Below are positions 42,953-64,000 of a stretch of DNA of 64,000 nt, piece after piece (the stretch's first letter is position 1; each line of letters begins with the position of its first letter). Source of the stretch: an uncultured Actinomycetota bacterium (lineage in GTDB: Bacteria > Actinomycetota > Actinomycetes > JAHEKZ01). A program made the translations under genes and the position numbers. The stretch is taken from contig CAVQYR010000001.1 in the NCBI GenBank assembly GCA_963718235.1, positions 576,001 to 640,000 on the forward strand, given 5' to 3'. The notes under the pieces were generated by a model. That model searched no databases. It worked only from the letters and a program-made list of their open reading frames with translations, and had not been told where the DNA came from.

Positions 42953-43927
42953 CTAGGCCTGGGCCTTCTTGGTCTCCTCGATGATCGCCGGAAGGATCTT
43001 GTGCAGGTCACCGATGACGGCGTAGTCGGCGTAGCCCATGATCGCTGCCTCGGCGTCGTTGTTGATCACGATCATCGTCTTGGCGTTACGGCACCCGGCA
43101 ATGTGCTGGGTCGCCCCGCTGATCCCTGCGGCGATGTAGAGGTCCGGCGCCACCTTCGTACCGGTCTGCCCCACCTGCTCGGTGTGTGGTCGCCACCCGT
43201 TCCCGGTGACCACCCGAGAGCAGCCGACTGCTCCGCCGAGCAGCTCGGCGAGCTCCTCCAGCGGTGCGAACCCCTCGGCGCTGCCCACGCCACGCCCACC
43301 GGACACGATCACCTTGGCGTCGGCCAGTGAGACCTTGCCGGGGCCGGCCTCCTCGTCGGCCGCCGGCTGCGCGAGCACGACGAGGTCGGCGTCGGACAGC
43401 TCGGGGGTGAACTCGGCGACCGCGACCGTGGTCGCCCCGCCCGGCTCTGCGGCGAACGTGTGCGGGACGACGGTGGCGAGGGTCGTGGGTGCGTGCACGA
43501 TCGCCTCCTCGATGAGGCTGCCGCCCCACCGCGCCCTGGTCACCGTGGTCGGGTCACCGGGCTGGACGGCGACGCAGTCCGCGGCGACGGGAAGGTCGGT
43601 GATCGCACCCAGGTGGGCGAGCACCTCGTTCCCGCGCAGTGAACCGACGGCCAGCACGACCGTGGTGCCCGAGCGCTGCATCACCTCGGCCACCGCCCGC
43701 GCCGACGCGAGCGGCGCGTAGTCGGTCAGGCCGGGGTGCACGGCCAGGTGCGCCGTGGTGACTCCGTAGTCACCGAGGGCAGCTGTGGCGGGCCGGCCGT
43801 CTTCTCCGACGACGACAGCCTCGAGCGGCTCTGCGAGCCCACCCGCCAGCTGGCGACCGAAGGTCAGCGCCTGCAGCGTCAGCTCGTCCAGCTGTCCGTG
43901 GTCGTGGTCGACGAGGACGAGTACCAC
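42953..43927 (-). CDS. etfA: Electron transfer flavoprotein alpha subunit
   Basis: VSGGRGVG, VGCSR, QVGQTG, AAGISGATQHIAG, INND..AAI. Confidence 0.95.
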   Translation of the reverse strand: MVLVLVDHDHGQLDELTLQALTFGRQLAGGLAEPLEAVVVGEDGRPATAALGDYGVTTAHLAVHPGLTDYAPLASARAVAEVMQRSGTTVVLAVGSLRGNEVLAHLGAITDLPVAADCVAVQPGDPTTVTRARWGGSLIEEAIVHAPTTLATVVPHTFAAEPGGATTVAVAEFTPELSDADLVVLAQPAADEEAGPGKVSLADAKVIVSGGRGVGSAEGFAPLEELAELLGGAVGCSRVVTGNGWRPHTEQVGQTGTKVAPDLYIAAGISGATQHIAGCRNAKTMIVINNDAEAAIMGYADYAVIGDLHKILPAIIEETKKAQA

Positions 43928-44683
43928 TCAGATCACCCCGATCTGCTTGAAGATCTCGACGACTGCGGGCGCGGCTTCCGGACCGGTGCCCAGCACGGCG
44001 GCCTGCTTGGCCTCGGTCTGCGGGACGACGAGCCGGGTCTTCTGCAGCCGCGGCTCGGGACGGTCCGGCGTGCGTCGGTCGACCGGCTTCTTCTTGGCCC
44101 GGATGCGTCCTGGCACCGATGGGTAGCGAGGCACGTTCAGCCCGTCGAGCACGGTGACCACGGCCGGGAGCGGAACCTCGTAGCGCTCGCGCGCCGATGC
44201 GGTGGGTCGTTCGCAGGTGACCCGACCGTCGTCGACGGTCATCGCCTTCACCCCGGTGACGACGGGTCGGCCCAGGGTGTGGGCCACCCGGATGCCGACC
44301 TGGTAGCCGCTTGCGTCGGCCGACTCGTTGCCCATGATCACCAGGTCGAACGAGGTCTCGTCGGCCACGATCGCCTCGGCGATCGCCGTCGCCGTCGCCT
44401 GCGGGTCCCACTCCTGGCCGTCGGTCTCGATCAGGATGCCCCGGTCGGCGCCGATCGCCATCTGCTCGCGGATCTGCTCCTCGGCCTCGGCCGGGCCGAG
44501 GGTGAGCACGGTGACGCTGCCCCCGTGCTTCTCCACGAGCCGGACCGCCTCCTCGACCGCGACCTCCTCGTGCGGGCTGATCGTGAATCCGAGCCGGGCC
44601 GTCTCGATGTCCAGGCCGTCCTCGGTGATGGTGAACTTGCCCCCGCTCAGGGGGACCCGCTTGATGCAGACCAGGATGTCCAT
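43928..44683 (-). CDS. etfB: Electron transfer flavoprotein beta subunit
   Basis: ILVCIKRVP, AVEEAVRL, IGADRG, GNESAD..QVG, PRYPS..AKKKP. Confidence 0.95.
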   Translation of the reverse strand: MDILVCIKRVPLSGGKFTITEDGLDIETARLGFTISPHEEVAVEEAVRLVEKHGGSVTVLTLGPAEAEEQIREQMAIGADRGILIETDGQEWDPQATATAIAEAIVADETSFDLVIMGNESADASGYQVGIRVAHTLGRPVVTGVKAMTVDDGRVTCERPTASARERYEVPLPAVVTVLDGLNVPRYPSVPGRIRAKKKPVDRRTPDRPEPRLQKTRLVVPQTEAKQAAVLGTGPEAAPAVVEIFKQIGVI

Positions 44684-47202
44684 CAGGAGAGAATCCGCTC
44701 GTTCTTGGGGTCGAACAGGGGAGTGGCGCCGGCCACGGCGACCGTCACCGGGTAGTGCTCACCGAGGTACTCCACGACGAGCTTGGTGCCCTCGACGGCG
44801 TACTGCGGCGGCAGGTAGCTCATGAGCACGTGCTGCCCGAGTGACGGTGCCGAGCCGGCGCTGGTGACGAACGAGTACCGGCCGTGAGCGTCGACGATCG
44901 AACCGTGGTCGGGCGTGAGGATCGGCTCCTTGCCCATCATGTAGCGCTTCTCGCCGGTGCTGCTGGTGTGGTCGTCGACGGTCAACGTGCACAGCACGGT
45001 CACGGGCTCGGCCTCGCGGTGCTTCAGGTGCGCGGCTTTGCCGATGAAGTCGTGCTCCTTGATCTTCGGCGGAGCCATGCCGGCCTCGACGACGGTGTAC
45101 TCAGACTCCAGCTCTGCGCCGAAGGCCCGGTAACCCTTCTCGAGTCGTCCGGTCGTGCCGTAGACGCCAATGCCGACGGGGACGACGCCGTACTCCTGGC
45201 CAGCGTCCCAGACGGCGTCCCACAGCTGGGCGCCCTGCTCCATCGGGACGTAGAGCTCCCAGCCGAGGTCGCCCACGTAGGAGATCCGTGAGGCGAGCAC
45301 CTTCAAGGACCCGATCTCGATCGTGCGGCAGGTGCCGAACTTGAAGGCCTCGTTGGAGACGTCGTCACGAGTGATGCTGGACAAGATGTCCCTGGCCTTG
45401 GGCCCCCAGAGTCCCAGCGTCGTGTACGACGACGTGAGGTCGAACACCTGCGCCGTGCCGTCGGCCGGCAGGTTGTCGGAGAACCACTTGAGGTCGGCCA
45501 TTCCGTGAGCGCCACCGGTGACCACTCGGTAGTGGTCGTGTCCGAGACGCATCACGGTCAGGTCGGACTTGAAGCCACCGCTGGGCGAGAGCACCGGCGT
45601 GTAGACGACACGGCCGTTCGGGACGTCCATCTGGCGCATGCAGACCGTCTGCAGTGCCTCGAGCGCGCCGGGACCGGTGATGTCGAAGATGACGAAGGCG
45701 GTGAGGTCCACCATGCCTGCGGTGTCGCGCATCGCCAGGTGCTCGGCGTTGATGATCGGTGACCACCAGCGCGACTCCCACTCGGCGGTGCGTGGCATCA
45801 CGGCGTCGCCGTACTTGGCGACCAGGTCGGCGTTCGACTCGTACCAGAACGGCCGCTCCCAGCCGGCGGTCTCGAAGAACGTGGCTCCGAGCGCCTTCTC
45901 GCGCTCGTAGAACGGCGAGAGCCGCACGTTGCGGTTGGACTCCCACTGCTCGGCCGGGTGAACGATGCCGTAGGTCTTGTTGAAGCCCTCGGCCGTACGC
46001 TCCTTGACGTTCTTGCGCGTCGTCTGATGGGGGTAGAAGCGGGCGATGTCGGAGGCCTGCAGGTCGATCTCGGACTCGCCGTTGACCATCCACTCCGAGA
46101 CGGCGCGGCCGATGCCTGGGCCCTCCTTGATCCACACCGCAGACACCGACCAGAGGCCCTTGACCTCGGGCGTCTCGCCGAGCAGTGGCATGCCGTCAGG
46201 AGTCAGCGAGAGCAGTCCGTTGATGGCGTACTTCTGGCCGACGGTCTCGTCGCCGACGATCTCGGGCATCAGCTCGAGTGCCTGCTCGTACTGCAGCTCG
46301 AAGTCCTCGGCGGTGAAGGGGAACTCGGTGGGCGACAGCTGCGCCTCCTCGACCGACGGCAGGTCCTCGGGGTCGTAGAGGATCGCGCGGTGTGCGTAGG
46401 AGCCGATCTCCAGGCCGCCGCCGTGCTGGCGCTCGTACATGTTGGTGTCCATGTCGCGCACGATCGGGAACTCGATGTCGCCCTTGGCGTCGGCGAACCG
46501 GGGCACGGGTCCGACGTCGATCATCTGGTGCACTGCCGGCGTCAACGGGATCGAGGCACCGGCCATCCGGGCCAGGCGCGGACCCCACAGCCCGGTCGCG
46601 ATGACGACGTACTCGGCCTCGATCCGGCCCTTGTCGGTGACCACGGCCTTGACCCGGCCGTCCTCGACCTCGATGTCGTGCACCTCGGTCTCTGCCGAGA
46701 CCGTCAAGGCCCCCATCTCCTGGGCCTTCTCGCGCATCAGCGTGCCGGCGCGCAACGAGTCGACCACACCGACGGTCGGTGTGTAGAAGCCACCGAGGAT
46801 CACACTGCCGTCCATGTACGGCACGAGCTCGACGCACTCATCAGGGGTGAGGATGGTGCAGTCGGGAATGCCCCAGGCCTTGGACGACGACATGCGGCGC
46901 TGCAGCTCCTGCATGCGCTCCTCGGTGCGCGCGACCTCGATGCCACCGCACTGGGTGAAGACACCGAGCTCCTTGTACTGCTTGACGCTGTCGAAGGTGA
47001 GCAGCGCCATCTCCTTGGTGTGGTCGACCGGGAAGATGAAGTTCGACGCGTGGCCGGTCGAACCGCCGGGGTTCGGCAGCGGGCCCTTGTCGATCTGCAC
47101 GAGGTCGCGCCAGCCCAGACGCGCCAGGTGGTAGGCCATGGAGTTGCCGACGATGCCGGCGCCGATGATGACCGCCTTGGCCTTGGTGGGGAGGGTGCTC
47201 AT
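44683..47202 (-). CDS. Dimethylglycine oxidase/dehydrogenase-family flavoprotein (FAD domain + GcvT folate domain)
   Basis: IIGAGIVG, GGSTGHAS (covalent-FAD His region), TPDGMPLLG, AGWERP, SYVGDLGWE, RLEKGYR. Confidence 0.9.
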   Translation of the reverse strand: MSTLPTKAKAVIIGAGIVGNSMAYHLARLGWRDLVQIDKGPLPNPGGSTGHASNFIFPVDHTKEMALLTFDSVKQYKELGVFTQCGGIEVARTEERMQELQRRMSSSKAWGIPDCTILTPDECVELVPYMDGSVILGGFYTPTVGVVDSLRAGTLMREKAQEMGALTVSAETEVHDIEVEDGRVKAVVTDKGRIEAEYVVIATGLWGPRLARMAGASIPLTPAVHQMIDVGPVPRFADAKGDIEFPIVRDMDTNMYERQHGGGLEIGSYAHRAILYDPEDLPSVEEAQLSPTEFPFTAEDFELQYEQALELMPEIVGDETVGQKYAINGLLSLTPDGMPLLGETPEVKGLWSVSAVWIKEGPGIGRAVSEWMVNGESEIDLQASDIARFYPHQTTRKNVKERTAEGFNKTYGIVHPAEQWESNRNVRLSPFYEREKALGATFFETAGWERPFWYESNADLVAKYGDAVMPRTAEWESRWWSPIINAEHLAMRDTAGMVDLTAFVIFDITGPGALEALQTVCMRQMDVPNGRVVYTPVLSPSGGFKSDLTVMRLGHDHYRVVTGGAHGMADLKWFSDNLPADGTAQVFDLTSSYTTLGLWGPKARDILSSITRDDVSNEAFKFGTCRTIEIGSLKVLASRISYVGDLGWELYVPMEQGAQLWDAVWDAGQEYGVVPVGIGVYGTTGRLEKGYRAFGAELESEYTVVEAGMAPPKIKEHDFIGKAAHLKHREAEPVTVLCTLTVDDHTSSTGEKRYMMGKEPILTPDHGSIVDAHGRYSFVTSAGSAPSLGQHVLMSYLPPQYAVEGTKLVVEYLGEHYPVTVAVAGATPLFDPKNERILS

Positions 47203-47247
47203 GGTGCGTTCCCTTCGTTTCCTGACGGGTGGTGCCGGTGCGTGGTG

Positions 47248-47919
47248 CTACAGCGAACGGCGGATCGAGCCTTCGAATCCGTCGACGTGGGAGGACATGA
47301 CGGCGGTGGCGCGCTCGGCGTCACCGCTGCGGATGGCCTCGAGCAGGCTGCGGTGCTCGAGGACGGCGTCCTCGAGGTGGCTGACCCGGTCGAGGGCGAG
47401 GAACCAGATGCGTAGCGCGTGCATGTAGTGCTCGTCGAGCACGGATGCCAGGAACTCGTTGTGGGCGGCCCGGTGCACGAACCGGTGGATGCGCTGGTCG
47501 ACCTCGATCAGCCGGCGCTCCTCGGGCAGCTCGCCCAGGGCGTCCAGCTCGACGAGCAGGCCCTCGAGGTCGTCGCGGTCGGCGTCGTTTCGCCGCTCGG
47601 CGGCGAGACCGGCCGCGAACGGCTCCAGGACGCTGCGCACCTCCGACAGGGCGGCCAGGTCGCGGACGTCGACGCCTGCGACGAACATGCCGCGCCGGGG
47701 GTAGACCTCGACCAGGTTCTCCCTAGCCAGGGCGCGAAGCGCCTCGCGCACGGGGGTGCGGCCGATCCCGAGCCGGGCCATCAGGTCCTGCTCGCTGACC
47801 ACCGACCCGGGGGCGAGGTCGAGGGTGACGATCATGCTGCGGATCGCGTAGTAGGCCTGCTCCGACTGCGAGCCGGCATCGGCCGACGCCGGCTGCAGGA
47901 TCTCCACGGACGAGGTCAC
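47248..47919 (-). CDS. GntR family regulator (FCD domain)
   Basis: LGIGRTPVREAL, PRRG, FH..AHNEFL, EHR..L.AI, MSSH. Confidence 0.93.
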   Translation of the reverse strand: MTSSVEILQPASADAGSQSEQAYYAIRSMIVTLDLAPGSVVSEQDLMARLGIGRTPVREALRALARENLVEVYPRRGMFVAGVDVRDLAALSEVRSVLEPFAAGLAAERRNDADRDDLEGLLVELDALGELPEERRLIEVDQRIHRFVHRAAHNEFLASVLDEHYMHALRIWFLALDRVSHLEDAVLEHRSLLEAIRSGDAERATAVMSSHVDGFEGSIRRSL

Positions 47920-47920
47920 G

Positions 47921-47936
47921 GTATAGATATATCAGT
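47921..47936. promoter_or_regulatory. Candidate GntR operator
   Basis: AT-rich GATATATC palindrome (47926-47933) immediately upstream of the gntR start. Confidence 0.55.
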
Positions 47937-47964
47937 TACCCCCCGATTCGTACACCACCTCTTT

Positions 47965-48029
47965 CAAGTTGATCATGGACATGATGTGCGGTCTCGACCG
48001 GTTTCGACCGCATCTTCTGCTTGATCAAC
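47965..48029 (+). repeat. REP/MITE-like repeat, copy 1
   Basis: CAAGTTGATCATGGACATGATGTGCGGTCTCGACCG...; self-complementary ends GTTGATCA/TGATCAAC and internal TGCGGTC/GACCGCA stem. Confidence 0.8.
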
Positions 48030-48066
48030 GCGACGTGGGCGAGTGAAGCCCTGGGGTGGGGGGGAG

Positions 48067-48519
48067 TTACTGGCCGGCCTCCGCGGCGCGCAGCCGGCGG
48101 GCCAGCACCGACAGCATCGGGACGGCGACCTCGGGGTGCTCGTCGAGCAGGGCCTTGAACGTCGGCTTCTCCAGCGCGAAGGTCGTCATGCCCTCCGGCC
48201 CGGCCACGACATCGGCCGTGCGTGGTTCGCCGTCGATGAGCGACAGCTCGCCGAAGTACTGCCCAGGCCCGAGGGTCGCCACGGTGGTGCCTCCCTTGAC
48301 GACGTCGCCGGAGCCCTCCAGGACGAGGTGGAAGAGCACCCCTCGGGCGGAGAAGGTCTTGAACCCGGCGACCGACTCACCCTCGACGGTCACCTTCTCG
48401 CCAGGGGGGAAGCGGCCCTCCTCACCGGCGTGCACGAGCTTCTTCAGGGTGCGATGGGACAGACCGGAGAACAGGTCGGTCGACTCCATGACCGTGACGA
48501 TCGCCTCTGTGGAATCCAC
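48067..48519 (-). CDS. Stand-alone cyclic nucleotide-binding domain protein
   Basis: GTG 48519 with GGGAGG RBS; LFSGL, LVLEG, phosphate-binding cassette FGELSLIDGEPRTADV. Confidence 0.88.
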   Translation of the reverse strand: MDSTEAIVTVMESTDLFSGLSHRTLKKLVHAGEEGRFPPGEKVTVEGESVAGFKTFSARGVLFHLVLEGSGDVVKGGTTVATLGPGQYFGELSLIDGEPRTADVVAGPEGMTTFALEKPTFKALLDEHPEVAVPMLSVLARRLRAAEAGQ

Positions 48520-48646
48520 GTACGCTTCCCTCCCGCAAAGCCCCCGTCCGACCGTCGGGCGGAGGCGACAACCGTCGTCGCGGCTCGGTGCTGACCGAGG
48601 AGCGCGACGGACCTGGGCATGATCGTCCGCTGACCGGGTACGCCGG

Positions 48647-49351
48647 TCAACCCCCCGGTGCTGTCGTCCCCGGTCGGGACGGCGTCGAACGTGCAGAACA
48701 TGAGGTCCGAAACGGTCGAGACCGCACATCAAGTCCAAGATCAACTTGGGGGTGGGGTGGGGGGTCGGCGGTGAGGAGGCGCTGCAGCTCGGCCTCCAGG
48801 CCGGCCAGGCCGACGTCGACCACCTCGAGCGGCAGGCCGATCGCGGCCGCGGCCACGCGGGCGGCGGCGGTCAGCTCGGGCGTGCGTCGCTGGGCGAGCC
48901 ACACGACCCGGGTGTAGCGACCGAAGTAGTCGTCGCGCAGCTCGGGGTACCGGTCGAGCCCCAGCTCGGCCAGGACGGTCCGGCGAAACGAGAGCACCAG
49001 GAAGTCGGTGAGCACGTAGGTGCCGGGCTGCTCCTCGAACACCTGCTTCATCCGTTGGACGCCGGCGAACACGTCGTAGCAGTGCGCGCCGCCGAGCCGA
49101 CCGACACCGCGGCGGGCACAGACGTCGTCGAGCGCCCCGTAGGTGCCGCAGTCGGCGTACCCGACGGCCAACCGCTGGTGGCGGGCCGACAGCTCGTCGA
49201 GCGCCACCTCGACCGCGTCAGCGATCCGCTCGGGGTGGTTGTGCAGCAGCGGGGGCAGCGGTTTGACCTCGATCGGCCAGCCGCGGGCGTCGGCGACCGA
49301 GGAGATGTCGGAGGCGATCGCCCCGCACGCGACGACGCCGACGGAGGTCAC
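48647..49351 (-). CDS. DUF1638-like protein
   Basis: VVACGAI, LHNHPERI, GYADCGTYGALD, GAHCY, YVLTDFL, LGLDRYPELRDDYFG; coupled to the corrinoid activator gene. Confidence 0.82.
   Translation of the reverse strand: MTSVGVVACGAIASDISSVADARGWPIEVKPLPPLLHNHPERIADAVEVALDELSARHQRLAVGYADCGTYGALDDVCARRGVGRLGGAHCYDVFAGVQRMKQVFEEQPGTYVLTDFLVLSFRRTVLAELGLDRYPELRDDYFGRYTRVVWLAQRRTPELTAAARVAAAAIGLPLEVVDVGLAGLEAELQRLLTADPPPHPQVDLGLDVRSRPFRTSCSARSTPSRPGTTAPGG
48693..48748 (-). repeat. REP/MITE-like repeat, copy 2 (inverted relative to copy 1)
   Basis: Reverse complement matches 47965-48020 at 49/56 positions by manual alignment. Confidence 0.8.
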
Positions 49352-51198
49352 GTCGGGAAGCCCAGCTGCTCGACGAACAGGTCGTTGAAGTCCGAGCGGT
49401 CGGACAGCTCGAGGTACTCGATCTCGTCGAGCAGGGTCTGGGCGCCATGGCGCTCCTGGGCCGAGAGCAGCACCATCTTCGCCCCCTCACCAGCGACATT
49501 ACCGGCGCTGACGATGCGCAGCACCGGAAGGTTCGGCACCAGCCCGATCCGCACAGCACTGGACGGCGACAGGTACGTGCCGAACGACCCGGCGAGCAGG
49601 ACCTGCTGGATCTCGCCCTCGCCGACTCCGAACTCCTCCAGCAGCAGGCGCCAGCCCGTGGAGATCGCCGCCTTGGCGAACTGCAGCTCGCGCACGTCGC
49701 GCTGGGACAGGTAGACCGGGTCTCCCTCGACCGGCGAGGCGAGCTCGAAGACCCGCTCCTTGTCGATGGTCACCAGCCGGTCGGCCAGGGCAGGGGCGAC
49801 CTGGCGCGCCACGTCGTCGGTGACGAACCGACCGGAGGAGTCGAGCAGTCCGACCCGCACGAGCTCGCTCACGGCGTCGACCAGCCCTGACCCGCACAGC
49901 CCCACGGGCTCGACGTCACCGATGACCTGCAGCTCGAGGCCCTGGTCGGTGGCCCTGACCACCTCGATCGCCCCGGGTGCGGCCCGCATGCCGCTGCGGA
50001 TCGAGGCCGCCTCGAAGGCCGGGCCGGCCGGTGCCGCCGTGGCGAGCAACCGTTCGCCGTCACCGAGCACGAGCTCGCAGTTGGTCCCGATGTCGATGAA
50101 CAGCCGCAGCCGCTTGTCTCGGTCCATCCCCGTGGCCAGGACGCCGGAGATGATGTCGCCACCGACGTAGGCCCCCAGCGAGGGGAAGACCGACGCGCGG
50201 GCCCTGGGGTGGATCGACACCCCGAGGTCGTGGGCGGTGAGCCCCTGGTACCCGCTCGTGGCCAGGATGAACGGCGCGACCCCCAGGGGCTCCGGGTCGA
50301 TACCGAGGACGAGCTGCACCATGGTCGCGTTGCCGGCCAGAGCCACCTCGTACACCTCGGAGGGGTCGACACCGGCCTCTGCGCATGCCTCGTGCGCGAG
50401 CTCGTTGAGGGTCTGCTGGGCCAGGAACTGCAGCCGGCCCAGAGCCTCCGGGTCGAGCATGGTGGAGCTGATCCGGGTGATCACGTCGGCCCCGAACGGC
50501 TGCTGGCGGTTCAGCATCGAGTGGACGGCGGCCGGGGTCCCGGTCTTCACGTCCATCAGGTTGGCCACCACCGTCGTGGTTCCCAGGTCGAACGCCAGCG
50601 CGTACGCCCGCGCAGCCGTGTCCCCGGCCTCGACGCCGATGAGCTCGTCGTCGACGACGATCGCGGTCACCTTGTAGTCGGCGGCTCGGAGCACCCGCCC
50701 GAGCTCTCGGTGTACGGCGGGATCGACCCGCAGCTCGAGGTCGTCGATGGCGTCGAGCAGCCGGGCGAGGTCGCTGCGCTGGTCGGACAGCGTCGGCTCG
50801 TCGAGCTCGACGAACCGCTTCTGCAGCGCCGGCCGCAAGATGACCTGGCGCCCCACGCCCACCGTGGCCGCCTTGGGTCGGGTGGTCAGCGGGGGGACCT
50901 CGATCGACAGGTCGGTGTTGGCGGCTGCCATGCAGGCAAGACGCCAGCCGTCGTCGAGCTGGTCGGTGTCGAAGGCGCGGAGGTCCAGGCGCTGCACGGG
51001 GACGTCGCCGGACAGCACGCGCACCTTGCACTTCTTGCACGTGCCGTGGCCACCGCAGGTCGAGTCGATGGCGATGCCGTTCCAGCTGGCGGCGTCGAAC
51101 ACGGTGACGCCGGCCGGGACGCGCACCTCCTTGTCCGACGGTGTGAAGCTGAGTCGTACGCGGGCAGGACCGTGGTCCTCGACCGGCTCGACGGACAC
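49348..51198 (-). CDS. ATP-dependent reductive activator of corrinoid proteins (RACo/RamA-like; 2Fe-2S + ASKHA)
   Basis: CGGHGTCKKC...RLAC ferredoxin; DLGTTTV, GADVITRI, YVGGD, DIGTNCE, AGPAFE, GLCGSG, QFAKAAI, LAGSFG. Confidence 0.92.
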   Translation of the reverse strand: MSVEPVEDHGPARVRLSFTPSDKEVRVPAGVTVFDAASWNGIAIDSTCGGHGTCKKCKVRVLSGDVPVQRLDLRAFDTDQLDDGWRLACMAAANTDLSIEVPPLTTRPKAATVGVGRQVILRPALQKRFVELDEPTLSDQRSDLARLLDAIDDLELRVDPAVHRELGRVLRAADYKVTAIVVDDELIGVEAGDTAARAYALAFDLGTTTVVANLMDVKTGTPAAVHSMLNRQQPFGADVITRISSTMLDPEALGRLQFLAQQTLNELAHEACAEAGVDPSEVYEVALAGNATMVQLVLGIDPEPLGVAPFILATSGYQGLTAHDLGVSIHPRARASVFPSLGAYVGGDIISGVLATGMDRDKRLRLFIDIGTNCELVLGDGERLLATAAPAGPAFEAASIRSGMRAAPGAIEVVRATDQGLELQVIGDVEPVGLCGSGLVDAVSELVRVGLLDSSGRFVTDDVARQVAPALADRLVTIDKERVFELASPVEGDPVYLSQRDVRELQFAKAAISTGWRLLLEEFGVGEGEIQQVLLAGSFGTYLSPSSAVRIGLVPNLPVLRIVSAGNVAGEGAKMVLLSAQERHGAQTLLDEIEYLELSDRSDFNDLFVEQLGFPT

Positions 51199-54971: not shown

Positions 54972-54998
54972 GTTCTATCATATGGAACCCCCGTTCCA
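54972..54998. promoter_or_regulatory. Candidate IclR operator in divergent iclR/mttB promoter
   Basis: GTTCTATCATATGGAAC (54972-54988) overlapping TGGAAC-cccc-GTTCCA (54983-54998). Confidence 0.6.
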
Positions 54999-55067
54999 CG
55001 GGGCGATAGTAGGATTCGTCGTCCGGGCGGGTCAAGGCCGCGCCTTCGTCGGATTCGTGGAGGGTCG

Positions 55068-56507
55068 ATGTTCGTCAACCGCATGCCGCGCTACGAGATC
55101 CTGTCGGCAGACTCGATGGCCACGCTCGACCGGGGATGGCGGCGGATCGTCTCCGAGATCGGCGTGGAGTTCATGAAGCCGGAGGCGCTCGACCTCTTCC
55201 GCCAGGCGGGGCAGAAGGTGGAGGAGAACAACGTCTTCTTCGACCCCGACTTCCTGCTCGAGCAGGCGGCCAAGGCCCCCCGCGAGTTCGACATCCAGGC
55301 CCGCAACCATGCCAACGACGTGCACATCGGCGGAGACCACATGGTCTTCTCCAGCGTCTACGGACCGCCCTTCGTCCGGCGGGGCGACGTCCGGCGGGAG
55401 GGCACGCTGGAGGACTACCGCAACTTCGCCAAGCTGGCCCAGTCCTTCGACGTCCTCGACAGCGTCGGCGGGGTGGTCGCCGAGCCCAACGACGCACCGC
55501 TGGACTCCCGGCACCTCGACATGCTCTACGCCACCATGACGCTCACCGACAAGATGTACATGGGCAACGTGGTCAGCGGGGGCAACGCACGCGACACGAT
55601 CGCGATGAGCGAGATCCTCTTCGGTGGGCGTGAGTCGATCGAGCAGACACCGGCCTGCATCTCGCTCATCAACTGCAACTCACCCCTTCGCTGGGACGAC
55701 CGCATGCTCGACGCCCAGTTCGAGTACTCCGCGGCCAACCAGCCGGTGGTGCTGACCCCCTTCCTGCTCATGGGGGCCATGTCGCCGGTCACGATCCCCT
55801 CCGCGCTGGTCCAGCAGATCGCCGAGGCACTGACCGGGATCGCTCTGAGCCAGCTGATCCGCCCCGGGGCCCCGGTGGTGTTCGGCTCGTTCCTGTCCAA
55901 CATCGACATGCAGTCGGGCTCTCCCCAGTTCGGCACGCCCGAGTCGGCCATGGGCCTGCTGTGTACAGGCCAGATCGCGCGTCACTTCGGGCTGCCCTTC
56001 CGTGGCGGTGGCGGGCTCAACTCCTCCCAGGTGCCCGACGCCCAGGCCGCCTACGAGTCGCTCATGACGATGCTGCCGACCTTCCTGGCCGGCACGAACT
56101 TCGTCATGCACTCCGCGGGCTGGCTGGAGGGTGGTCTGGTCTCGTGTTTCGAGAAGTACGTCATCGACGTGCAGGTGCTCGAGATGCTGCAGAAGGAGTT
56201 CACACCACTCGAGATCACCGACGAGGACCTCGCCTTCGACGCCCACCAGGAGGTCGGCCACGGCGGTCACTTCCTCGGTGCGATGCACACCATGGAGCGG
56301 TTCCGAACGTGCTTCTACCGGCCGTTCCTGTCGTCGTCGGACAACTTCGAGCGGTGGACCCGCAACGGGTCCAAGGACACCGCGACCCGGGCCGGTGAGA
56401 TCGTCGACACCAAGCTCGAGGCCTACCAGCCGCCGCCGCTGGACGACGCGGTCCGCGAGCAGCTCGAGGACTACGTCATCCGTCGCCGCACCGAGCTCGG
56501 CGACTGA
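55068..56507 (+). CDS. Non-pyrrolysine MttB-superfamily methyltransferase (MtgB-like)
   Basis: EIGVEF, EP.D.P...RHLD, NCNSPLRWD, GAMSPVT, QLIRPGAPVVFG, GTPE, DAQAAYES, HSAGWLEGGL, VGHGGHFL; no in-frame TAG; GGAGG RBS. Confidence 0.93.
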   Translation: MFVNRMPRYEILSADSMATLDRGWRRIVSEIGVEFMKPEALDLFRQAGQKVEENNVFFDPDFLLEQAAKAPREFDIQARNHANDVHIGGDHMVFSSVYGPPFVRRGDVRREGTLEDYRNFAKLAQSFDVLDSVGGVVAEPNDAPLDSRHLDMLYATMTLTDKMYMGNVVSGGNARDTIAMSEILFGGRESIEQTPACISLINCNSPLRWDDRMLDAQFEYSAANQPVVLTPFLLMGAMSPVTIPSALVQQIAEALTGIALSQLIRPGAPVVFGSFLSNIDMQSGSPQFGTPESAMGLLCTGQIARHFGLPFRGGGGLNSSQVPDAQAAYESLMTMLPTFLAGTNFVMHSAGWLEGGLVSCFEKYVIDVQVLEMLQKEFTPLEITDEDLAFDAHQEVGHGGHFLGAMHTMERFRTCFYRPFLSSSDNFERWTRNGSKDTATRAGEIVDTKLEAYQPPPLDDAVREQLEDYVIRRRTELGD

Positions 56508-56527
56508 CCCCGATCAGAGCTGGAACG

Positions 56528-56564
56528 CGCGAACGGCGCAACCGAAGCGGTTGCGCCGTTCGCG
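56528..56564. terminator. Perfect 17-bp hairpin between convergent mttB and ABC SBP genes
   Basis: CGCGAACGGCGCAACCG-aag-CGGTTGCGCCGTTCGCG. Confidence 0.8.
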
Positions 56565-56595
56565 TCGAACTGTCCGGTTGTGAGACCGGGCAGGA

Positions 56596-57573
56596 TCAGC
56601 CGCCCTGAAGCCAGGCGTCGACCTTGTCCGGGTTGTCGTCGATCCACTGCTGGGCGGCGTCCTCGGGGGACATGCCGTCCTTGGCGATCATCAACGCAAC
56701 GGCGTTCTGGTCGTCGTTGGTCCAGGTGAAGTTCTCCACCAGCTGTGCGGCCGGGCCGTTCTCCTCCATGAAATCAGCCGCAGCGATCTTGTCCAGGATG
56801 TACTCGGGGTAGTCACAGGCCACGGTCGCCGGGTCGGCGTCACAGCCCTCGGTCCACACCGGCAGGTCGACCTTCACCAGCGGCACCTCGGACAGGAACC
56901 ACTGTGGCTCGTAGAAGTACCCGAGGACCCATTCCTTGTTCTGCTCGGCAGTGCGGAACGCCTGGATCAGGGCAGCCTCGCTGCCGGCGTACACGACCTC
57001 GAAGTTGAGGTCGAGGTTCTCGATGAGCGCCTCGTCGTTGGTGACGAACGAGGGGTCGCCGTCGAGCAGCTGGCCCTTGTCGCCCGACTCGGCGGTCTTG
57101 AACTTGTCCGCGTACTTGTTCAGGTTCTCCCAGTTCGTGATGTCCGGGTACTCCTCGGCCAGCCACGGCGGCACGTACCAGCCGATGACGCCGATGTTGC
57201 CGTTCGGGCCGACGTCGACCGCAGTGCCCTGCTTGTCGATGTACTTGGCCTTCAGGTCGTCGTGGCCCCAGTTCTCGATGACGACGTCGACCTCACCGGT
57301 GCCCATTCCCTGCCAGGAGACTTCTTCCTTGAGGTCCTTGTAGTTGACCGTGCAGCCGAGCTTGGTGGCGGCCACCTCACCGACCACGTAGGCAGACGCC
57401 TCGTAGCCGACCCAGGGGTTGATCGCCATGTTGAAGTCACCGCACTCGGAGGCCGCCGTGCTGCCGCCGTCCCCACCACCGCTGATGTCATCACTCCCGC
57501 ACGCCGCCACGGCCAGACTGGCTGCGGCAGCGAGCACTGCCAGACGGGCTACCCGTCGTCTTGCTCCTCGCAC
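56596..57573 (-). CDS. Glycine betaine/choline ABC substrate-binding lipoprotein (ProX/OpuAC-like)
   Basis: GTG 57573 with AAGGAG RBS; lipobox VAAC; NPWVGY, IENWG, GWYVP, YFYEPQW, CDYP, AAQQWI..N. Confidence 0.9.
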   Translation of the reverse strand: MRGARRRVARLAVLAAAASLAVAACGSDDISGGGDGGSTAASECGDFNMAINPWVGYEASAYVVGEVAATKLGCTVNYKDLKEEVSWQGMGTGEVDVVIENWGHDDLKAKYIDKQGTAVDVGPNGNIGVIGWYVPPWLAEEYPDITNWENLNKYADKFKTAESGDKGQLLDGDPSFVTNDEALIENLDLNFEVVYAGSEAALIQAFRTAEQNKEWVLGYFYEPQWFLSEVPLVKVDLPVWTEGCDADPATVACDYPEYILDKIAAADFMEENGPAAQLVENFTWTNDDQNAVALMIAKDGMSPEDAAQQWIDDNPDKVDAWLQGG

Positions 57574-57611
57574 TGTGTCTCCTTCTGTCGGGCCGCACGT
57601 CGCGGCACTGG

Positions 57612-59777
57612 TCACGCTGCCTCCACCCGTCCGTAGCGGGCTGCTGTGTGGACGGTGATCCGGTCGAGCATCACACCGAGCGCGGTGATGGCGATTCCGG
57701 CCGCCAACCCCTTTCCGAAGTCCTCGCCCTGGGAGAACCCGCTGATGACCAGGAAGCCGAGTCCGCCCCCGCCGACGAGACCGCCGATCACGACCATGGA
57801 GAGGACGAAGAGCAGTCCCTGGTTCGCGGCGAGCACGATCGAGCCTTTGGCCATGGGGAGCTGGACCTTGCCGATCATCTGCCAGCGGTTGGAGCCGGCT
57901 GCTTGGGCGGCCTCGACCGTGGTCGGTGAGACCCCTCTGATGCCGTCGGCTGAGATCTTGATGGCGACCGGTGCCGCATACAGCACGGCTGCTGCGATCG
58001 CCAGGAAGCGACCGGGGGGGAACAGTGCCAAGGCGGGGACGAGGTACACCAGCGAGGGCATCGTCTGCAGCCCGTCCAGCAGCGGCCGAACGGCGGTGTC
58101 GACCCGTCGGCTGCGGCCCATCCAGACTCCGACGACCACGCCCAGCACCATGACCAGGATCGCGGCGACGAGCGTCATGGCCAAGGTGACCATCGAGTCG
58201 TTCCAGAGGCCGGTCCCGAAGATGACGGCCAGGCAGATCGAGGTCGGAAGGAGCGCGCCACCCGCCCCTGACGCCACCGCGGCCACGACGAGCGCGGTGA
58301 TGATGCCCCAACACAACCACCAGGCGACGTCGAGCGACCCGTTGGCCCAGAGGCCGGAGCCGACGACGATGAGGGCGCACAGGACAGTCGACACCAGTCG
58401 TCGGCCCTGACTCGACGCGCCCACGCCGCCGAGGATCCCGGCGATGGCCAGGATCGTGCCTGCGACGAGCCACCACGGGGCGTTGGCCATCAGGTCCTGC
58501 AGCGGGTTGAGCAAGAAGTTCGTGACCGCGTCGCTGATCCACTTCGTGACCTGACCGAACGTGTCGGTGAACGCCTTGATGGCGTCGTTCACCCATCGCG
58601 CGATGCTGCGGCCCAGGTCACTGTCAGGGAACACCGACCAGCGAAGCTTGGTGTTCGACAGGTACACGAAGACGACGGCGACGATGCCGCCGGCGGCCAG
58701 CGTGGCGTTTCGGACGCGAGGGTTGATCCGCCGACGCGCTGTGACCTCGTAGCGCTCACCTGCGGCTACGGTCGCCCGGTCCAGCATGATCGCCATGATC
58801 ACGATGCAGGCGCCGGCGACGAACGAGACGCCCACGTTGAGCGCACCCAGTGCACGGACGATGGGGATACCCAGACCGGGCCCACCGACGAAGGCCGCGA
58901 TGATCGCCATGGACAGCGCCGCCATGATCGTCTGGTTGAGTCCGACGATGATCGTTCGGCGTGCCATCGGCAGCTGAACCTTCGACAGCAGCTGCCGCGA
59001 GGTCGACCCCAAGGCGGTGGTTGCCTCCACGGTGGTCGGCGAGACGGTGCGGAGCCCATGTGCCGAGATGCGGACCAGGGGAGGCAGCGCGTAGATCAGC
59101 GTGGCCACCACGGCGGCCGGGTTGCCGATGCCGAAGACGAGCACCAGCGGCGTCAGGTAGGCAAAGGATGGCATCGTCTGGAAGACGTCGAGCACCGGGG
59201 TCACCATCGCGGTTGCCCTCTCACTGCGCGACATCCAGATGCCCAGCGGCAGGCCGATGCCGACGCAGATCACGACGGACACCAAAGTGATGACCAGCGT
59301 GTCGATGCTCGCTTCCCAGTACCCGAGGTAGCCGAACGCCAGCATCGAGAAGAGGGTGAGCACGGCGATCCGGACGCTGGCCAGGGCGTAGGCCACCCAG
59401 ACGGCGAGGGCGACGACGCCCGCCCACCCGACCACGGCCACGGCCAGGGGACGCCCTGGGTCGGAAACGAAGAGCTTCTGCAACGTGCTGACCGTCCAGT
59501 CGATCGCGCTGCTGATCCAGTCGATCGGAAGGAAGAGGAGGTTGCCGTTGAACTTGGCCTCTTCGACGGAGTCTCTGAGGCTGTTCAGCCAGAGCTGGAA
59601 ATCGGTGAGCTCGGCCGTCGGCAGGTCCTGGGTGTTCCTGCCCTGGAGGAGCCAGCCCAGCACGACCCATACTGCGACCACTGCCGCGAGTGCGAGCCAG
59701 CGGTTGCGGTTGGTGCGGTCCGGTGGCGGTGGACTCTCGGGCTGGGGGTACTCGATCTCGGCGAGTTCGACAGCCAT
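57612..59777 (-). CDS. Glycine betaine ABC permease with two fused ProW-like domains
   Basis: Two copies of LD..QTMPS..YL.P, EAA loop and KVQLPMA. Confidence 0.92.
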   Translation of the reverse strand: MAVELAEIEYPQPESPPPPDRTNRNRWLALAAVVAVWVVLGWLLQGRNTQDLPTAELTDFQLWLNSLRDSVEEAKFNGNLLFLPIDWISSAIDWTVSTLQKLFVSDPGRPLAVAVVGWAGVVALAVWVAYALASVRIAVLTLFSMLAFGYLGYWEASIDTLVITLVSVVICVGIGLPLGIWMSRSERATAMVTPVLDVFQTMPSFAYLTPLVLVFGIGNPAAVVATLIYALPPLVRISAHGLRTVSPTTVEATTALGSTSRQLLSKVQLPMARRTIIVGLNQTIMAALSMAIIAAFVGGPGLGIPIVRALGALNVGVSFVAGACIVIMAIMLDRATVAAGERYEVTARRRINPRVRNATLAAGGIVAVVFVYLSNTKLRWSVFPDSDLGRSIARWVNDAIKAFTDTFGQVTKWISDAVTNFLLNPLQDLMANAPWWLVAGTILAIAGILGGVGASSQGRRLVSTVLCALIVVGSGLWANGSLDVAWWLCWGIITALVVAAVASGAGGALLPTSICLAVIFGTGLWNDSMVTLAMTLVAAILVMVLGVVVGVWMGRSRRVDTAVRPLLDGLQTMPSLVYLVPALALFPPGRFLAIAAAVLYAAPVAIKISADGIRGVSPTTVEAAQAAGSNRWQMIGKVQLPMAKGSIVLAANQGLLFVLSMVVIGGLVGGGGLGFLVISGFSQGEDFGKGLAAGIAITALGVMLDRITVHTAARYGRVEAA

Positions 59778-59779
59778 GA

Positions 59780-60850
59780 CTAGTGCGCTTCCTCGGCGAC
59801 GACGATCCGCAGGATGTCGTCCTGGTCCACAACCCCCAGGAGCTGGCCGCCCTCGACGACCCGCACCGGGTGCTCGGCGTCGATGACGCGGCGCGCGGCG
59901 TCTCGGACGATGGTGTCCGGTGACATCTCCGGTCCCTCCAGGGACTCGTCACCGCGCCGTTCGCGCATCACCCACCGCAACGTCAGCACGTGCGACCGGG
60001 GCACCTCGCTGACGAAGTCACGCACGTAGTCGTCCGCGGGGGCTCCCACGACTTCGGCCGGCGTACCCATCTGGATCAGTGCACCGTCTCGCATGATCAG
60101 GATCCGGTCACCCAGCTTGAGGGCCTCCTGCAGGTCATGGGTGATGAAGACCATGGTCTTGCCCACCTCGTGGTGCAGCCGGATGACCTCGTTCTGCATG
60201 TCGCGACGGATCAGCGGGTCGAGGGCGGAGAACGGCTCGTCGAAGAGCAGCACCGAGGGGTCGACCGCCAGCGCACGGGCCAGTCCGACGCGCTGCTGCA
60301 TGCCACCGGAGAGCTGGTCGGGGTAGGAGTCCTCGTTGCCGGTCAGACCGACGAGGTCGACGAGCTCCTGCGCCTTGGCCCGACGGTCGGCCTTGCCGAC
60401 CCCGCGGATCTCCAAGCCGTACGCGACGTTGTCGATGACCTTGCGGTGCGGCAGCAGCCCGAAGTGCTGGAACACCATGGAGACGTGGTGCCGACGCAAC
60501 TCCCTGAGCCGGGACTCCGACATCTTGACGACGTCCTCGTCTCCGATCAGCACCTTGCCGGAGGTCGGCTCGATCAGCCGGGTGAGGCAGCGCACGAGGG
60601 TGGACTTGCCGGAGCCGGAAAGGCCCATGACGACGAAGACCTCGCCCGGTGCGACGTCGAAGCTCACGTCGCGCACTGCTGCGGTACAGCCTGTCTTCGC
60701 CATCAGATCTGACCGACTGAGCTCGGCGTCCGGTGAGCCGACGATCTTGTCGGCCTTGGGTCCGAAGATCTTCCACAGCCCCTCGACGGTCAGGGCCGCC
60801 CCTCCAGTGGTGGTCGCCGGCAGTGCGGCGTCGTCGACAGCAACACTCAT
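59780..60850 (-). CDS. Glycine betaine/proline ABC ATP-binding protein (ProV/OpuAA-like)
   Basis: [50 protein letters not shown]-terminal CBS-like segment. Confidence 0.94.
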
Positions 60851-62562
60851 GCGTGGGCTCCCTGCTGGTCGCTCTGCTGGTTTCGGTAGTCACCCGGAGG
60901 GTAGAGCGGACTGCCGTCTCGGTAGCGGTAGTACGGCGCATCCGAGGGGGGAAGTGGCGTGTTGCCGGCGATGAGGTCTGCGGCCTTCTCGGCCAGCATC
61001 ATCACCGGGGCGTAGATGTTGCCGTTGGTGACGTAGGGCATCGAGCTGGCGTCCACGACGCGCAGGCCCTCGACGCCGTGTACCTCCATCGTCGTCGGGT
61101 CGAGCACTGCGTCGTCGTCGACGCCCATCTTGGCCGTGCACGACGGGTGGAGTGCGGTCTCGGCGTCCTTGGCGACCCAGTCGAGGATCTCCTCGTCGGT
61201 CTCCACCGAGGGTCCCGGTGAGAGCTCACCGTCGTTGAACGGCGCGAACGCCTGCTGGTTGAGGATGTCCCGGGCCACGTGGATGCACTCGATCCACTCC
61301 TGGCGGTCGGTGTCGGTGGACAGGTAGTTGAACTGCAGCGCCGGGTGCTGCCTGGGGTCGGTGGACTTGAGCTTCACGGTACCGCGCGCGTCGGAGTACA
61401 TCGGTCCGATGTGCACCTGGTAGCCGTGGCCCTCGGTGGGTGAGGTGCCGTCGTACCGGATCGCGATCGGCAGGAAGTGGAACATCAGGTTCGGGTAGTC
61501 GACCTGGTCGTTGCTGCGGACGAAGCCACCGCCCTCGAAGTGGTTGGTCGCACCGAGCCCCGAGCGCAGGAACATCCACTGCGCGCCGATTCCGGGGCGC
61601 TTCCACCAGGCGAGCCCGGGGGCGATCGACACGGGCTGCTTGCTGGCGTACTGGATGTACACCTCGAGGTGGTCCTGCAGGTTGGCGCCCACGCCGGGGA
61701 GGTCGGCGACGACCGGGATCCCGAGTGCGGACAGGTCGTCGGCGTTCCCCACGCCGGACAGCTGCAGCAGCTGGGGGCTGTTGATGGCCCCGCCGCACAG
61801 GATCACCTCGCCAGCGCTCACCGACCGCAGCGACCGTCCGGCCCGCAGGTACTCGACACCGACTGCGCGCTTGCCCTCGAACAGCACCCTGGTGGCGTGG
61901 GCGAGGGTCTCGACCTTGAGGTTCTTGCGGTCCATGACCGGGTGCAGGTAGGCCCGTGCGGCGCTGAGCCGGCGTCCGCGGTGGATGTTGCGGTCGAACC
62001 GGGCGAACCCCTCCTGGCGGTATCCGTTGACGTCGTCGGTCAACGGGTAGCCGGCCTGCTGGGAGGCCTCGAAGAAGGCCCCGAACAGCGGGTTGGTCGC
62101 GGGTCCGCGCTCGAGCACCAGCGGGCCGCTGCCTCCGCGCCACTCGTCGGCGCCGGCGAGGCAGGTCTCCATGCGCTTGAAGTACGGCAGACAGTGGGCG
62201 AAGTCCCAGGTCTCCATGCCCTTGTCGGCGCCCCAGCGCTCGTAGTCCATCGGGTTGCCGCGCTGGAATATCATCCCGTTGATGCTGCTGGACCCACCGA
62301 GCACCTTGCCTCGCGCGTGGTAGACCTTGCGCCCGCCCATGAAGGGCTCCGGCTCCGACTCGTACTTCCAGTCGTACAGGCGGCTGCCGATCGGGAACGG
62401 CAGCGCTGCGGGCATGTGGATGAACGGGTCCCAGATGAAGTCCGACCGTCCGGCCTCGAGGACCAGCACGCTCGTCGCCGGGTCGGTGCTGAGCCGGTTG
62501 GCCAGGGCCGACCCGGCCGATCCGCCACCCACGATGACGATGTCGAAGTGCCGGTCACTCAT
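60847..62562 (-). CDS. betA: Choline dehydrogenase (GMC oxidoreductase)
   Basis: [53 protein letters not shown]. Confidence 0.95.
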
Positions 62563-62589
62563 CAGTCGTGCTCCCAGGGCTCGTCACGG

Positions 62590-64000
62590 TCACGACCCGA
62601 ACCAGTGCTGCGGCTGGGGCTCGAGGTTGTTCCAGATGTGCTTGGTCTCGCGGTACTCGGCCAGGCCGTGGTGTCCCAGCTCGCGCCCGAAGCCGGACTG
62701 CTTGTAGCCGCCCCACTCGGCCTGTGGCACGTACGGGTGGTAGTCGTTGATCCACACCGTCCCCGCGCGCAGGCCGGCGGCCACCCGCTGGGCCTTGGCC
62801 GCGTCGGAGGTCCAGACCGCTCCGGCCAGGCCGTACGTCGTGTCGTTGGCCAGGGCGAGGGCCTCGGCCTCGTCGGAGAAGGTCTCCACCGTGAGGACTG
62901 GGCCGAACGACTCGTCCTGCACGATGCTCATCGCCGCGGCGCACCGGTCGAAGATCGTGGGCAGGTAGTAGAAGCCGTCAGCCAGGGCCGGGTCGTCGGG
63001 ACGACGGCCACCGCAGCGCAGCACCGCGCCCTCGGCGACCCCGGCGGCGACGTACGCCTCGACCTTGCCCAGGTGGGCAGCCGAGACCAACGGACCTGTC
63101 TCCGCCTTCTCGTCGAACGGGCCACCGAGCCGGATTGCTGACGTTCGCCGGACCAGCTCGTCGACGAAGTCGTCGTGGATCGACTCCTCGACCAGCAGCC
63201 GCGCCCCGGCCGAGCACACCTGGCCGGAGTGCAGGAACACCGCCGTCAGCGCGAAGTCGAGGGCCGCCTCACGGTCGGCGTCGGCGAACACGATGTTCGG
63301 GTTCTTGCCGCCCAGCTCGAGGGCGACCTTCTTCACCGTCGCCGCGGCCTCGACCATGATGTGGCGCCCCGTCGCGAGCCCGCCGGTGAACGAGACGAGG
63401 TCGACGCGGGGGTCGCTGGACAACGGTGCGCCGGCGGCCGGCCCGGCTCCGAGCACAAGGTTGGCCACGCCGGACGGGAGCCCGGCGTCGGCCAGCTCAC
63501 GCATCAAGAGGATCGCGGTGGACGGGGTGAGCTCGCTGGGCTTCAGGACGAACGTGTTGCCTGCCGCGAGCGCGGGTGCGACCTTCCACGAGGTCTGGAG
63601 CAGGGGGTAGTTCCACGGCGTGATCAGCCCACAGACCCCCACGGGTTCGTTCACGACCCGGCTGTCGACCTCGGGGCGGTCGACCTCGACCTGCCGGGTG
63701 CTCTCTTCGGCCGCGAGGCGGGCGTAGTAGCGAAAGACCGCGATGACGTCGTCGAGGTCGTACTCGGCCTCGACGTAACGCTTGCCGGTGTCCATCGCCT
63801 CGGCGCGGGCGAACTCGGCCTTGTGCGCCACCAGCCGGTCGGCCACCGCGCTGAGCAGCGCCCCTCGCTCGACACCGGAGGTGGAGGGCCACGGACCGTG
63901 GTCGAAGGCCGCTCGGGCGGCCGCGATCGCCGCCTGGGTGTCCTCGGCGGTCGCCTCGTCGACCTCGGTGACGAACGACCCGTCTGCGGGGCAGGTGATC
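62590..64000 (-). CDS. betB: Betaine-aldehyde dehydrogenase-like ALDH (5' end outside window)
   Basis: ITPWNYP, KPSE, FTGG, LELGGKNP, GQVCSAG, ESFGPV, WGGYKQSG.GRE; frame open to window edge; upstream of betA. Confidence 0.88.
   Translation of the reverse strand, partial: ITCPADGSFVTEVDEATAEDTQAAIAAARAAFDHGPWPSTSGVERGALLSAVADRLVAHKAEFARAEAMDTGKRYVEAEYDLDDVIAVFRYYARLAAEESTRQVEVDRPEVDSRVVNEPVGVCGLITPWNYPLLQTSWKVAPALAAGNTFVLKPSELTPSTAILLMRELADAGLPSGVANLVLGAGPAAGAPLSSDPRVDLVSFTGGLATGRHIMVEAAATVKKVALELGGKNPNIVFADADREAALDFALTAVFLHSGQVCSAGARLLVEESIHDDFVDELVRRTSAIRLGGPFDEKAETGPLVSAAHLGKVEAYVAAGVAEGAVLRCGGRRPDDPALADGFYYLPTIFDRCAAAMSIVQDESFGPVLTVETFSDEAEALALANDTTYGLAGAVWTSDAAKAQRVAAGLRAGTVWINDYHPYVPQAEWGGYKQSGFGRELGHHGLAEYRETKHIWNNLEPQPQHWFGS

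Follow-up and report, generated by a model that had tools for sequence, protein, structure and literature searches.

A 64,000-nucleotide stretch of an actinomycete genome, hereafter the window (C1:576001-640000 of a 3.17 Mb genome, 95% complete), holds a gene cluster of ~21 kb that we consider likely to be a cobamide-dependent module for glycine betaine catabolism of the aerobic MtgBCD kind. By gene content the cluster belongs to that kind and is predicted to work like it. As in Ruegeria and Phaeobacter, it has a non-pyrrolysine (non-Pyl) MttB-family methyltransferase, a stand-alone corrinoid protein, a pterin-binding methyltransferase (MeTr), a RamA-like activator, a DUF1638 protein and a second MetF in an aerobe. 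The mechanism is an established one: its chemistry was shown in 2025 in aerobic marine bacteria. Aerobic Ruegeria pomeroyi needs mtgC and mtgD both to use betaine and to make methionine, and MtgB, MetF2, RamA and DUF1638 are induced (PMC12478193); in Phaeobacter inhibens, mtgB1 and mtgC mutants have growth defects (10.64898/2025.12.19.695462). The original prediction for this DNA had implied that anaerobe chemistry in an aerobe would be a surprise, which the work in these two aerobes had already removed (PMC12478193; 10.64898/2025.12.19.695462); as a ground for novelty, anaerobe-only chemistry is ruled out by PMC12478193.

In a profile search of the window, all cluster parts proved to be open, stop-free reading frames with matching families, and every gene that the original prediction had listed is thus present and intact. 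Its description of one contiguous cluster is right as to contiguity, but the genes form three blocks by strand rather than a single operon. The first block, on the minus strand, contains betB, betA and the ABC transporter genes and is convergent with mttB. The second is mttB alone on the plus strand, divergent from iclR. The third, again on the minus strand, runs iclR-corrinoid-metV-metF-meTr-RACo-DUF1638 with intergenic gaps of -29 to 9 nt, and gntR-flavoprotein-etfB-etfA, on the same strand, comes after DUF1638. The list had missed a 140-aa gene with a cNMP-binding domain (48067-48489, minus strand) between DUF1638 and gntR; betB was named correctly, and its 5' start lies beyond the window, with a second IclR gene upstream of it, also outside.

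The arrangement is not a chance one, since it recurs in 80 related loci. The synteny comparison that the original prediction had proposed was run from an MttB search of species-representative genomes, which gave at least 581 relatives; the best 80 (76-90% identical) were used. These are mostly Actinomycetota by title, including Ca. Nanopelagicales metagenome-assembled genomes (MAGs), and their cultured carriers include Nocardioides, Phycicoccus, Planobispora and Planomonospora. Among the 80 loci we found IclR in 78, the corrinoid protein in 76, MeTr in 69, RACo in 67, betA in 62, betB in 60, DUF1638 in 56, the flavoprotein and MetV in 24 each, MetF in 23, etfB in 10 and etfA in 7. Of the 44 loci whose 10-kb flanks are complete, all have MeTr, the corrinoid protein and IclR, 42 have RACo, 39 each have DUF1638 and betB, and 38 have betA. 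Thus the methyl-transfer core and the bet genes travel together, while MetV and MetF do not always accompany them. In a class sample of 401 genomes that favours the host family, an MttB match at E<=1e-60 occurs in 32, of which 12 are from the host's own family; outside it, 20 of 389 genomes are mttB-positive. The same cluster is also present in genomes of 1.4-2.0 Mb with 46-53% GC.

The MttB-family protein (479 aa; 55068..56507, plus strand; PF06253 at 626 bits, and PDB alignments) would fill the MtgB role. It is non-Pyl, as originally predicted: the Pyl position is Leu317 (codon CTC), and there is no in-frame amber codon. It shares the TIM-barrel family of Desulfitobacterium hafniense MtgB (2QNE, 9YCE; E 1e-113), with a RamA homologue nearby. 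In the latter enzyme, mutagenesis and structure define a betaine site of Y97, F356, R312 and H348, in which Y97 makes a cation-pi contact and R312 and H348 bind the carboxylate (PMC13080624); PMC6855144 models the same site. In the 9YCE alignment, with residues counted by hand as chain number plus 2, the window MttB keeps three of these four residues, Y98 (=Y97), R312 and H348, and has Trp at position 352 where the D. hafniense enzyme has Ile. Trp352 is invariant in relatives, and the whole pattern of retained Y97, R312 and H348 with G356 and W352 recurs in 80/80 relatives and in the MttB of the Sinorhizobium meliloti cluster; Trp352 may substitute for F356 in betaine binding. The genome's two other MttBs lack Tyr at the Y97 position; of the three, the window MttB resembles MtgB most. 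The betaine assignment rests on the linkage to betAB, and from this and the retained residues we infer that the MttB substrate is glycine betaine.

Several observations weigh against this reading. F356, at which a change to Leu raises the Km of D. hafniense MtgB several hundred-fold (PMC13080624), is Gly in the window MttB and in 80/80 relatives. Conservation of R312, and to a lesser degree of H348, extends to MtcB, MtpB, MthB and MtyB, and carnitine, proline betaine, butyrobetaine and phosphocholine enzymes share both residues (PMC13080624), so these two residues do not mark betaine. The window MttB is only ~45% identical to any reference MttB. In addition, the 44 full-flank loci hold the flavoprotein in 18, MetV in 11 and MetF in 10 cases, counts that the 10-kb flanks limit. 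Two narrower assignments were rejected: a D. hafniense-type MtgB subtype, as the aromatic residue at F356 is not kept (Gly356), and a Pyl trimethylamine methyltransferase, on Leu317, a score of 152 bits to 7XCL and 288 bits on TIGR02369 against a cut-off of 525. With Pyl-MttB (7XCL) the protein shares family PF06253, the Pyl residue and the score being different.

The minus-strand block supplies the partners that such a methyltransferase would need. The stand-alone corrinoid protein (53465..54130; PF02310+PF02607), a candidate for the MtgC role, has the DxHxxG motif as DVHDIG at residues 102-107, is 46% identical to its S. meliloti counterpart and scores 210 bits on the best NCBIfam MtgC model, under the cut-off of 370. 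It is followed by MetV (52997..53455; PF12225, eight Cys, 51% identical to S. meliloti MetV) and a MetF2-type methylene-tetrahydrofolate (methylene-THF) reductase (52042..52995) with a weak PF02219 match of 78 bits; a separate housekeeping MetF at C1:1553988 scores 334 bits on PF02219. The pterin-binding methylcorrinoid:THF methyltransferase (51201..52070; PF00809; NF005719 at 322 bits, cut-off 259), in the putative MtgD/MtgA role, is 47% identical to its S. meliloti partner. Next is a RACo/RamA-type ATP-dependent corrinoid reductive activator (49348..51198; PF00111, PF17650, PF17651, PF14574), the sole copy in the genome, with an N-terminal 2Fe-2S Fer2 domain, a CGGHGTCKKC motif and RACo linker, middle and C-terminal domains. 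The DUF1638 protein (48647..49351; PF07796, 41% identical to S. meliloti DUF1638) has, over 48758-49351, C9, H37, C68 and C91 invariant or near-invariant; S. meliloti has them too, and they may form a metal or Fe-S site that serves RACo. Its predicted model is alpha/beta with a pLDDT of 97. Foldseek with this model returned nothing convincing (best CbiK chelatase 1QGO, E 2e-4, TM 0.36, root-mean-square deviation 11.9), the ESM Atlas gave no usable match, and no paper describing structure 4YYC was found in the literature searched.

On the other side of mttB, the minus-strand uptake and choline-oxidation genes encode an OpuAC/ProX-type substrate-binding lipoprotein (56596..57573; PF04069), a fused double ABC permease of ProW/ChoW type (57612..59777; PF00528 twice; TIGR03416 at 359 bits, cut-off 363) and a ProV-type ABC ATPase (59780..60850; TIGR01186 above cut-off). 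BetA choline dehydrogenase (60847..62562) scores 832 bits on TIGR01810, cut-off 732, and is above cut-off on NF002550. BetB betaine aldehyde dehydrogenase (62590..64000, its 5' end extending to C1:640176; PF00171) has TIGR01804 as its best match, at 588 bits under a cut-off of 669.

At the far end of the cluster, also on the minus strand, lies an 839-aa flavoprotein of the dimethylglycine oxidase/dehydrogenase family (44683..47202) with DAO and folate-binding GCV_T domains. Its best solved relative is N,N-dimethylglycine oxidase 1PJ5 (E 2e-167, 562 bits), presumably from Arthrobacter, and it scores 307 bits against mitochondrial dimethylglycine dehydrogenase; it carries GSTGHA, which we take to be a flavinylation-type motif. 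EtfB (43928..44683; PF01012) overlaps the flavoprotein stop by 1 nt and abuts EtfA, the electron transfer flavoprotein alpha subunit (42953..43927; PF00766+PF01012); a second etfA elsewhere in the genome is 41% identical. By sequence, then, the flavoprotein is closest to dimethylglycine oxidase, yet the adjacent EtfAB favours a dehydrogenase. It has the DAO plus folate-binding architecture of both 1PJ5 and the dimethylglycine dehydrogenase linked to electron transfer flavoprotein, and differs in being co-transcribed with etfBA. The open reading frames listed for seven regions that surround other DAO/GcvT and etf matches showed no heterotetrameric sarcosine oxidase layout.

By gene content the host is an aerobic respiring organism, with heme-copper oxidase subunit I (COX1) in the genome and hem, ccdA/ccsA-type and men genes in the window, which bears out the respiratory, cytochrome c context originally noted. 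FolD and Fhs were found, as was a canonical MetH of about 1160 aa with a reactivation domain. Besides MetH there are two stand-alone PF02574 proteins, one of which is a homocysteine S-methyltransferase above cut-off. For its three MttBs the genome has a single corrinoid/MeTr/RACo/DUF1638/MetV set. CobS, CobT and CobU stand beside an ABC ATPase (L100 7047-12762, L098), and a cobalamin riboswitch has one sub-threshold match (26.5 against 31.5 bits) a few kb upstream of the salvage genes; MetE and the corrin-ring genes CobN and CbiC/CobH were not found in the 95%-complete genome. The organism thus appears to be an aerobe that salvages cobamides. For the GbcA equivalog, four Rieske candidates reached only 86-205 bits against a cut-off of 670 in a scan of four of the five PF00848 places, the fifth being a 70-aa fragment; one of these candidates could be an unrecognised demethylase.

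From the genes, families, residues, synteny and genome inventory that we observe, we infer substrates, reaction directions and regulation as follows, the reactions following from work on Ruegeria, Phaeobacter and Desulfitobacterium. The ABC transporter would import choline and/or betaine, and BetA and BetB would oxidise choline to betaine. MttB would then transfer an N-methyl group of betaine to the corrinoid protein's Co(I), with dimethylglycine as the product, and the pterin-binding methyltransferase would pass the methyl group from the corrinoid to THF. MetV/MetF could convert methyl-THF to methylene-THF for FolD and Fhs; alternatively, the canonical MetH could spend methyl-THF on methionine. 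RACo with DUF1638 would re-reduce Co(II), driven by ATP, after oxidative inactivation, which would allow an aerobe to operate the system. The flavoprotein would convert dimethylglycine to sarcosine with the methyl group going onto THF and electrons probably to EtfAB. IclR probably controls the divergent promoters at a palindrome described below, the single corrinoid/MeTr/RACo set probably also serves the two orphan MttB paralogues with other substrates, and the cell would have to salvage cobamides. The originally proposed route from choline through betaine and corrinoid/THF to dimethylglycine survives as the best reading, by the betAB/ABC linkage and three of four MtgB residues, with its substrate being our assignment. 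Its description as independent of O2 can be kept for the methyl-transfer step only.

The choice of betaine as the methyl donor is where a different explanation could enter. The same machinery could act on another MttB substrate (choline, proline betaine, dimethylglycine or another methylated amine), with betaine kept as an osmolyte or demethylated elsewhere; we judge this unlikely. It would fit the absence of F356 and the presence of several uncharacterised Rieske oxygenases and five further full-length dimethylglycine/sarcosine-type flavoproteins in the genome, and the Journal of Biological Chemistry paper treats the four MtgB residues as a minimum set beside which further determinants exist (PMC13080624). 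However, choline does not have the acidic group that R312 and H348 require, betAB adjoin mttB in 38-39 of the 44 full-flank loci, and D. hafniense MtgB used neither choline nor dimethylglycine (PMC13080624).

Nor does the purpose of the methyl transfer have to be catabolic. MtgC and MtgD form the methionine synthase core in Ruegeria (PMC12478193), and an MtgE-like gene co-occurs with the module in relatives that lack MetH, as detailed below. The module might then be mainly biosynthetic here, with betaine methyls feeding methyl-THF for methionine, or with the proteins acting as a split methionine synthase, and have no energy role. We regard this as improbable in the window genome, which has a full 1162-aa MetH with its reactivation domain and no stand-alone MtgE-like gene, and whose cluster keeps a second MetF with MetV, a dimethylglycine flavoprotein and Etf. 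More improbable still is a cluster that serves metabolism under low oxygen or anoxia, like those of Desulfitobacterium and acetogens, and stays silent in oxic growth. RACo and MetVF are typical of anaerobes, and methyl transfer needs no O2. The genome nevertheless has a heme-copper oxidase, and the cluster is carried by cultured Nocardioides, Phycicoccus and Planobispora, whose lifestyle we take to be aerobic. Actinobacteriota MAGs do express methyltransferase genes in peat (PMC10805028), but the homologous system works in oxic cultures (PMC12478193; 10.64898/2025.12.19.695462). Catabolism of betaine in an aerobe is thus the reading that we retain.

In relatives of the host, the module probably doubles as a split methionine synthase, as their gene content suggests; this is not evident in the window genome. 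The MetH reactivation domain is present in 5/20 host-family genomes and in 0/14 of one genus. A stand-alone MtgE-like protein of ~300 aa (PF02574), 40-43% identical to S. meliloti Bmt/MtgE, has the Cys motifs of its family and scores 280 bits on the Bmt model (cut-off 338) over a 288-aa segment. Its gene is present in 15/20 host-family genomes, including 13 of the 15 without MetH, the two exceptions being 73% and 84% complete. In the class sample it occurs in 23/401 genomes, 21 of them among the 32 that are mttB-positive, and in 14/14 mttB-positive genomes without MetH versus 7/18 with it. Two genomes, G618 and G771 (97% and 95% complete), have the MtgE-like gene without an MttB family match; neither has a MetH-length cobalamin domain, and in the DNA examined the corrinoid, MeTr and RACo genes stand together without iclR, metV, metF or any bet gene. 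That MetV/MetF, IclR and the bet genes are missing together with mttB fits a catabolic role. In the window genome, the sole match to the MtgE-like query was the MetH N-terminus, with no stand-alone gene. Against over-reading, the 14 genomes come from four families, kin among them do not count as independent, most are MAGs, and 5/14 have weak MetE-family matches (E 1e-4 to 1e-12).

On balance we lean towards the view that in Actinomycetia the module is more than a betaine demethylase, namely a shared cobamide methyl-transfer hub, which with an unlinked MtgE-like enzyme would be the methionine synthase of several MetH-less lineages. These would include the streamlined 1.4-2.0 Mb genomes, with the module shrunk to corrinoid-MeTr-RACo in two genomes, and the window genome would represent the state with MetH retained and no MtgE. 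If true, a split methionine synthase would have taken the place of MetH in a second phylum, the organisms concerned would need salvaged B12 to make methionine as well as to use betaine, and the link to MetH absence would correct annotations of these genomes as methionine auxotrophs.

Among known systems, the S. meliloti locus matches the window in core order: mttB is divergent from the corrinoid gene, which is followed by DUF1638, metV, metF, meTr and RACo, with bmt nearby. Protein identities are 32-51%, and the S. meliloti locus has neither IclR nor the palindrome. Unlike the proteobacterial MtgBCD(E) systems, the window cluster belongs to an actinomycete and packs betAB, ABC uptake, the dimethylglycine flavoprotein, Etf and two regulators together, and its genome has a canonical MetH, no MtgE-like gene and an apparent reliance on cobamide salvage. 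The D. hafniense system differs in that its host is an anaerobe on anaerobic acceptors, whereas in the window betaine would come from choline and dimethylglycine would be degraded further. RamA-like and DUF1638 genes have been tied to B12 reactivation (10.1101/192971). Actinomycetota account for 5% of Tara mtgC reads, and Dataset S2 of the same paper had no match to the actinobacterial names looked for (PMC12478193); MtgBCD Pfams have been mapped on 15,525 marine genomes, a map that may already list actinobacterial orders (10.64898/2025.12.19.695462). The original statement that no characterised actinobacterial cluster is known stands within the literature searched, most subscription papers lying outside its coverage. 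Choline and glycine betaine are common osmolytes, and how actinomycetes without GbcAB carry out the first betaine demethylation had no answer in that literature; the cluster offers one that is testable in cultured Nocardioides, Phycicoccus and Planobispora. With it, the range of B12-dependent betaine demethylation would grow beyond marine Proteobacteria to include Actinomycetia, and such actinomycete cells would be B12 sinks.

The minus-strand operon is headed by the IclR regulator gene (54127..54903; family match), and a GntR/FCD regulator gene (47248..47919, minus strand; family match), present in 15/80 related loci, precedes the flavoprotein. Between iclR and mttB lies a palindrome, GTTCYA-N5-TGGAAC (54972..54988), that is a putative IclR operator. 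The pattern occurs in 63/77 upstream regions, the 77 being loci with enough upstream DNA and the same regions from which it was derived, versus 0/77 control stretches inside mttB, with a shuffle mean of 0.01. A sigma70-like promoter candidate toward iclR (TTGACC-18-TACTAT; 55006..55035, minus strand), a consensus match only, is the single match in the 14.5 kb scanned, where 0.4 would be expected. A perfect 17-bp hairpin (56528..56564) between the convergent mttB and binding-protein genes is likely a terminator. Rfam gave no match on the window at gathering score.

Copies of the cluster vary among genomes. Loci L143-L147 have the whole cluster with bet and ABC genes in genomes of 1.4-1.7 Mb and 46-49% GC, with MttB 70-71% identical. 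In a sister genus (L131-L134, L136-L137) the cluster is in two parts through duplication of the corrinoid gene, MetV and MeTr remaining with mttB (L018 being this first half) and MetF, RACo and DUF1638 lying at a second locus. The copy in G006 (L139-L140) has many apparent frameshifts, probably assembly errors, and loci titled 'Bifidobacterium breve' or 'Rubrivirga' (L030, L041, L042) nearly match Nanopelagicales-titled loci, so that the depositor labels look unreliable. RACo was dropped as a phylum-wide cluster marker: 163/401 genomes match, mostly at 33-40% identity, and only 3/400 others reach >=60%; one unpublished genome (G437) is counted here, and none of our conclusions depends on this tally. 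Apparent RACo-DUF1638 fusions (P0105, P0021) hold only RACo fragments, were read as frameshift read-through and were not used.

The other MttBs of the genome have settings of their own. The second (C1:1080106-1090396), 53% identical with Ala at the Y97 position and without its own corrinoid partner, is preceded by genes for a monomeric sarcosine-oxidase-like protein, a peptide-type binding protein, a GcvT-fused flavoprotein, a hydrolase and a Rieske oxygenase, the last spread over two overlapping frames. The third (C2:165979-173290), 39% identical with Gly at that position, is divergent from a DAO-type gene and a GcvT-fused flavoprotein and adjoins a Zn alcohol dehydrogenase; paralogues ~40% identical to it recur across the host family. 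The third PF02574 protein (C1:2109299-2112726) is tail to tail with a GcvT-fused flavoprotein and has a similar-scoring copy in most host-family genomes, and cobU is fused to a metallo-beta-lactamase-fold domain.

Between DUF1638 and gntR, a passenger insertion (47965..48748) with 67-nt inverted arms (47965-48031 and 48682-48748) encloses the cNMP-domain gene, which is present in 0/80 related loci. The arms belong to a repeat scattered over the genome, where it has at least 16 further matches, and the DUF1638 frame, reading through one arm, is lengthened by ~35 aa at its C-terminus. Genes of menA/menB/menC/menD type (37104-42931) lie directly before the cluster, and NADH dehydrogenase-like reading frames, recognised from sequence, lie within 10 kb past its other end.

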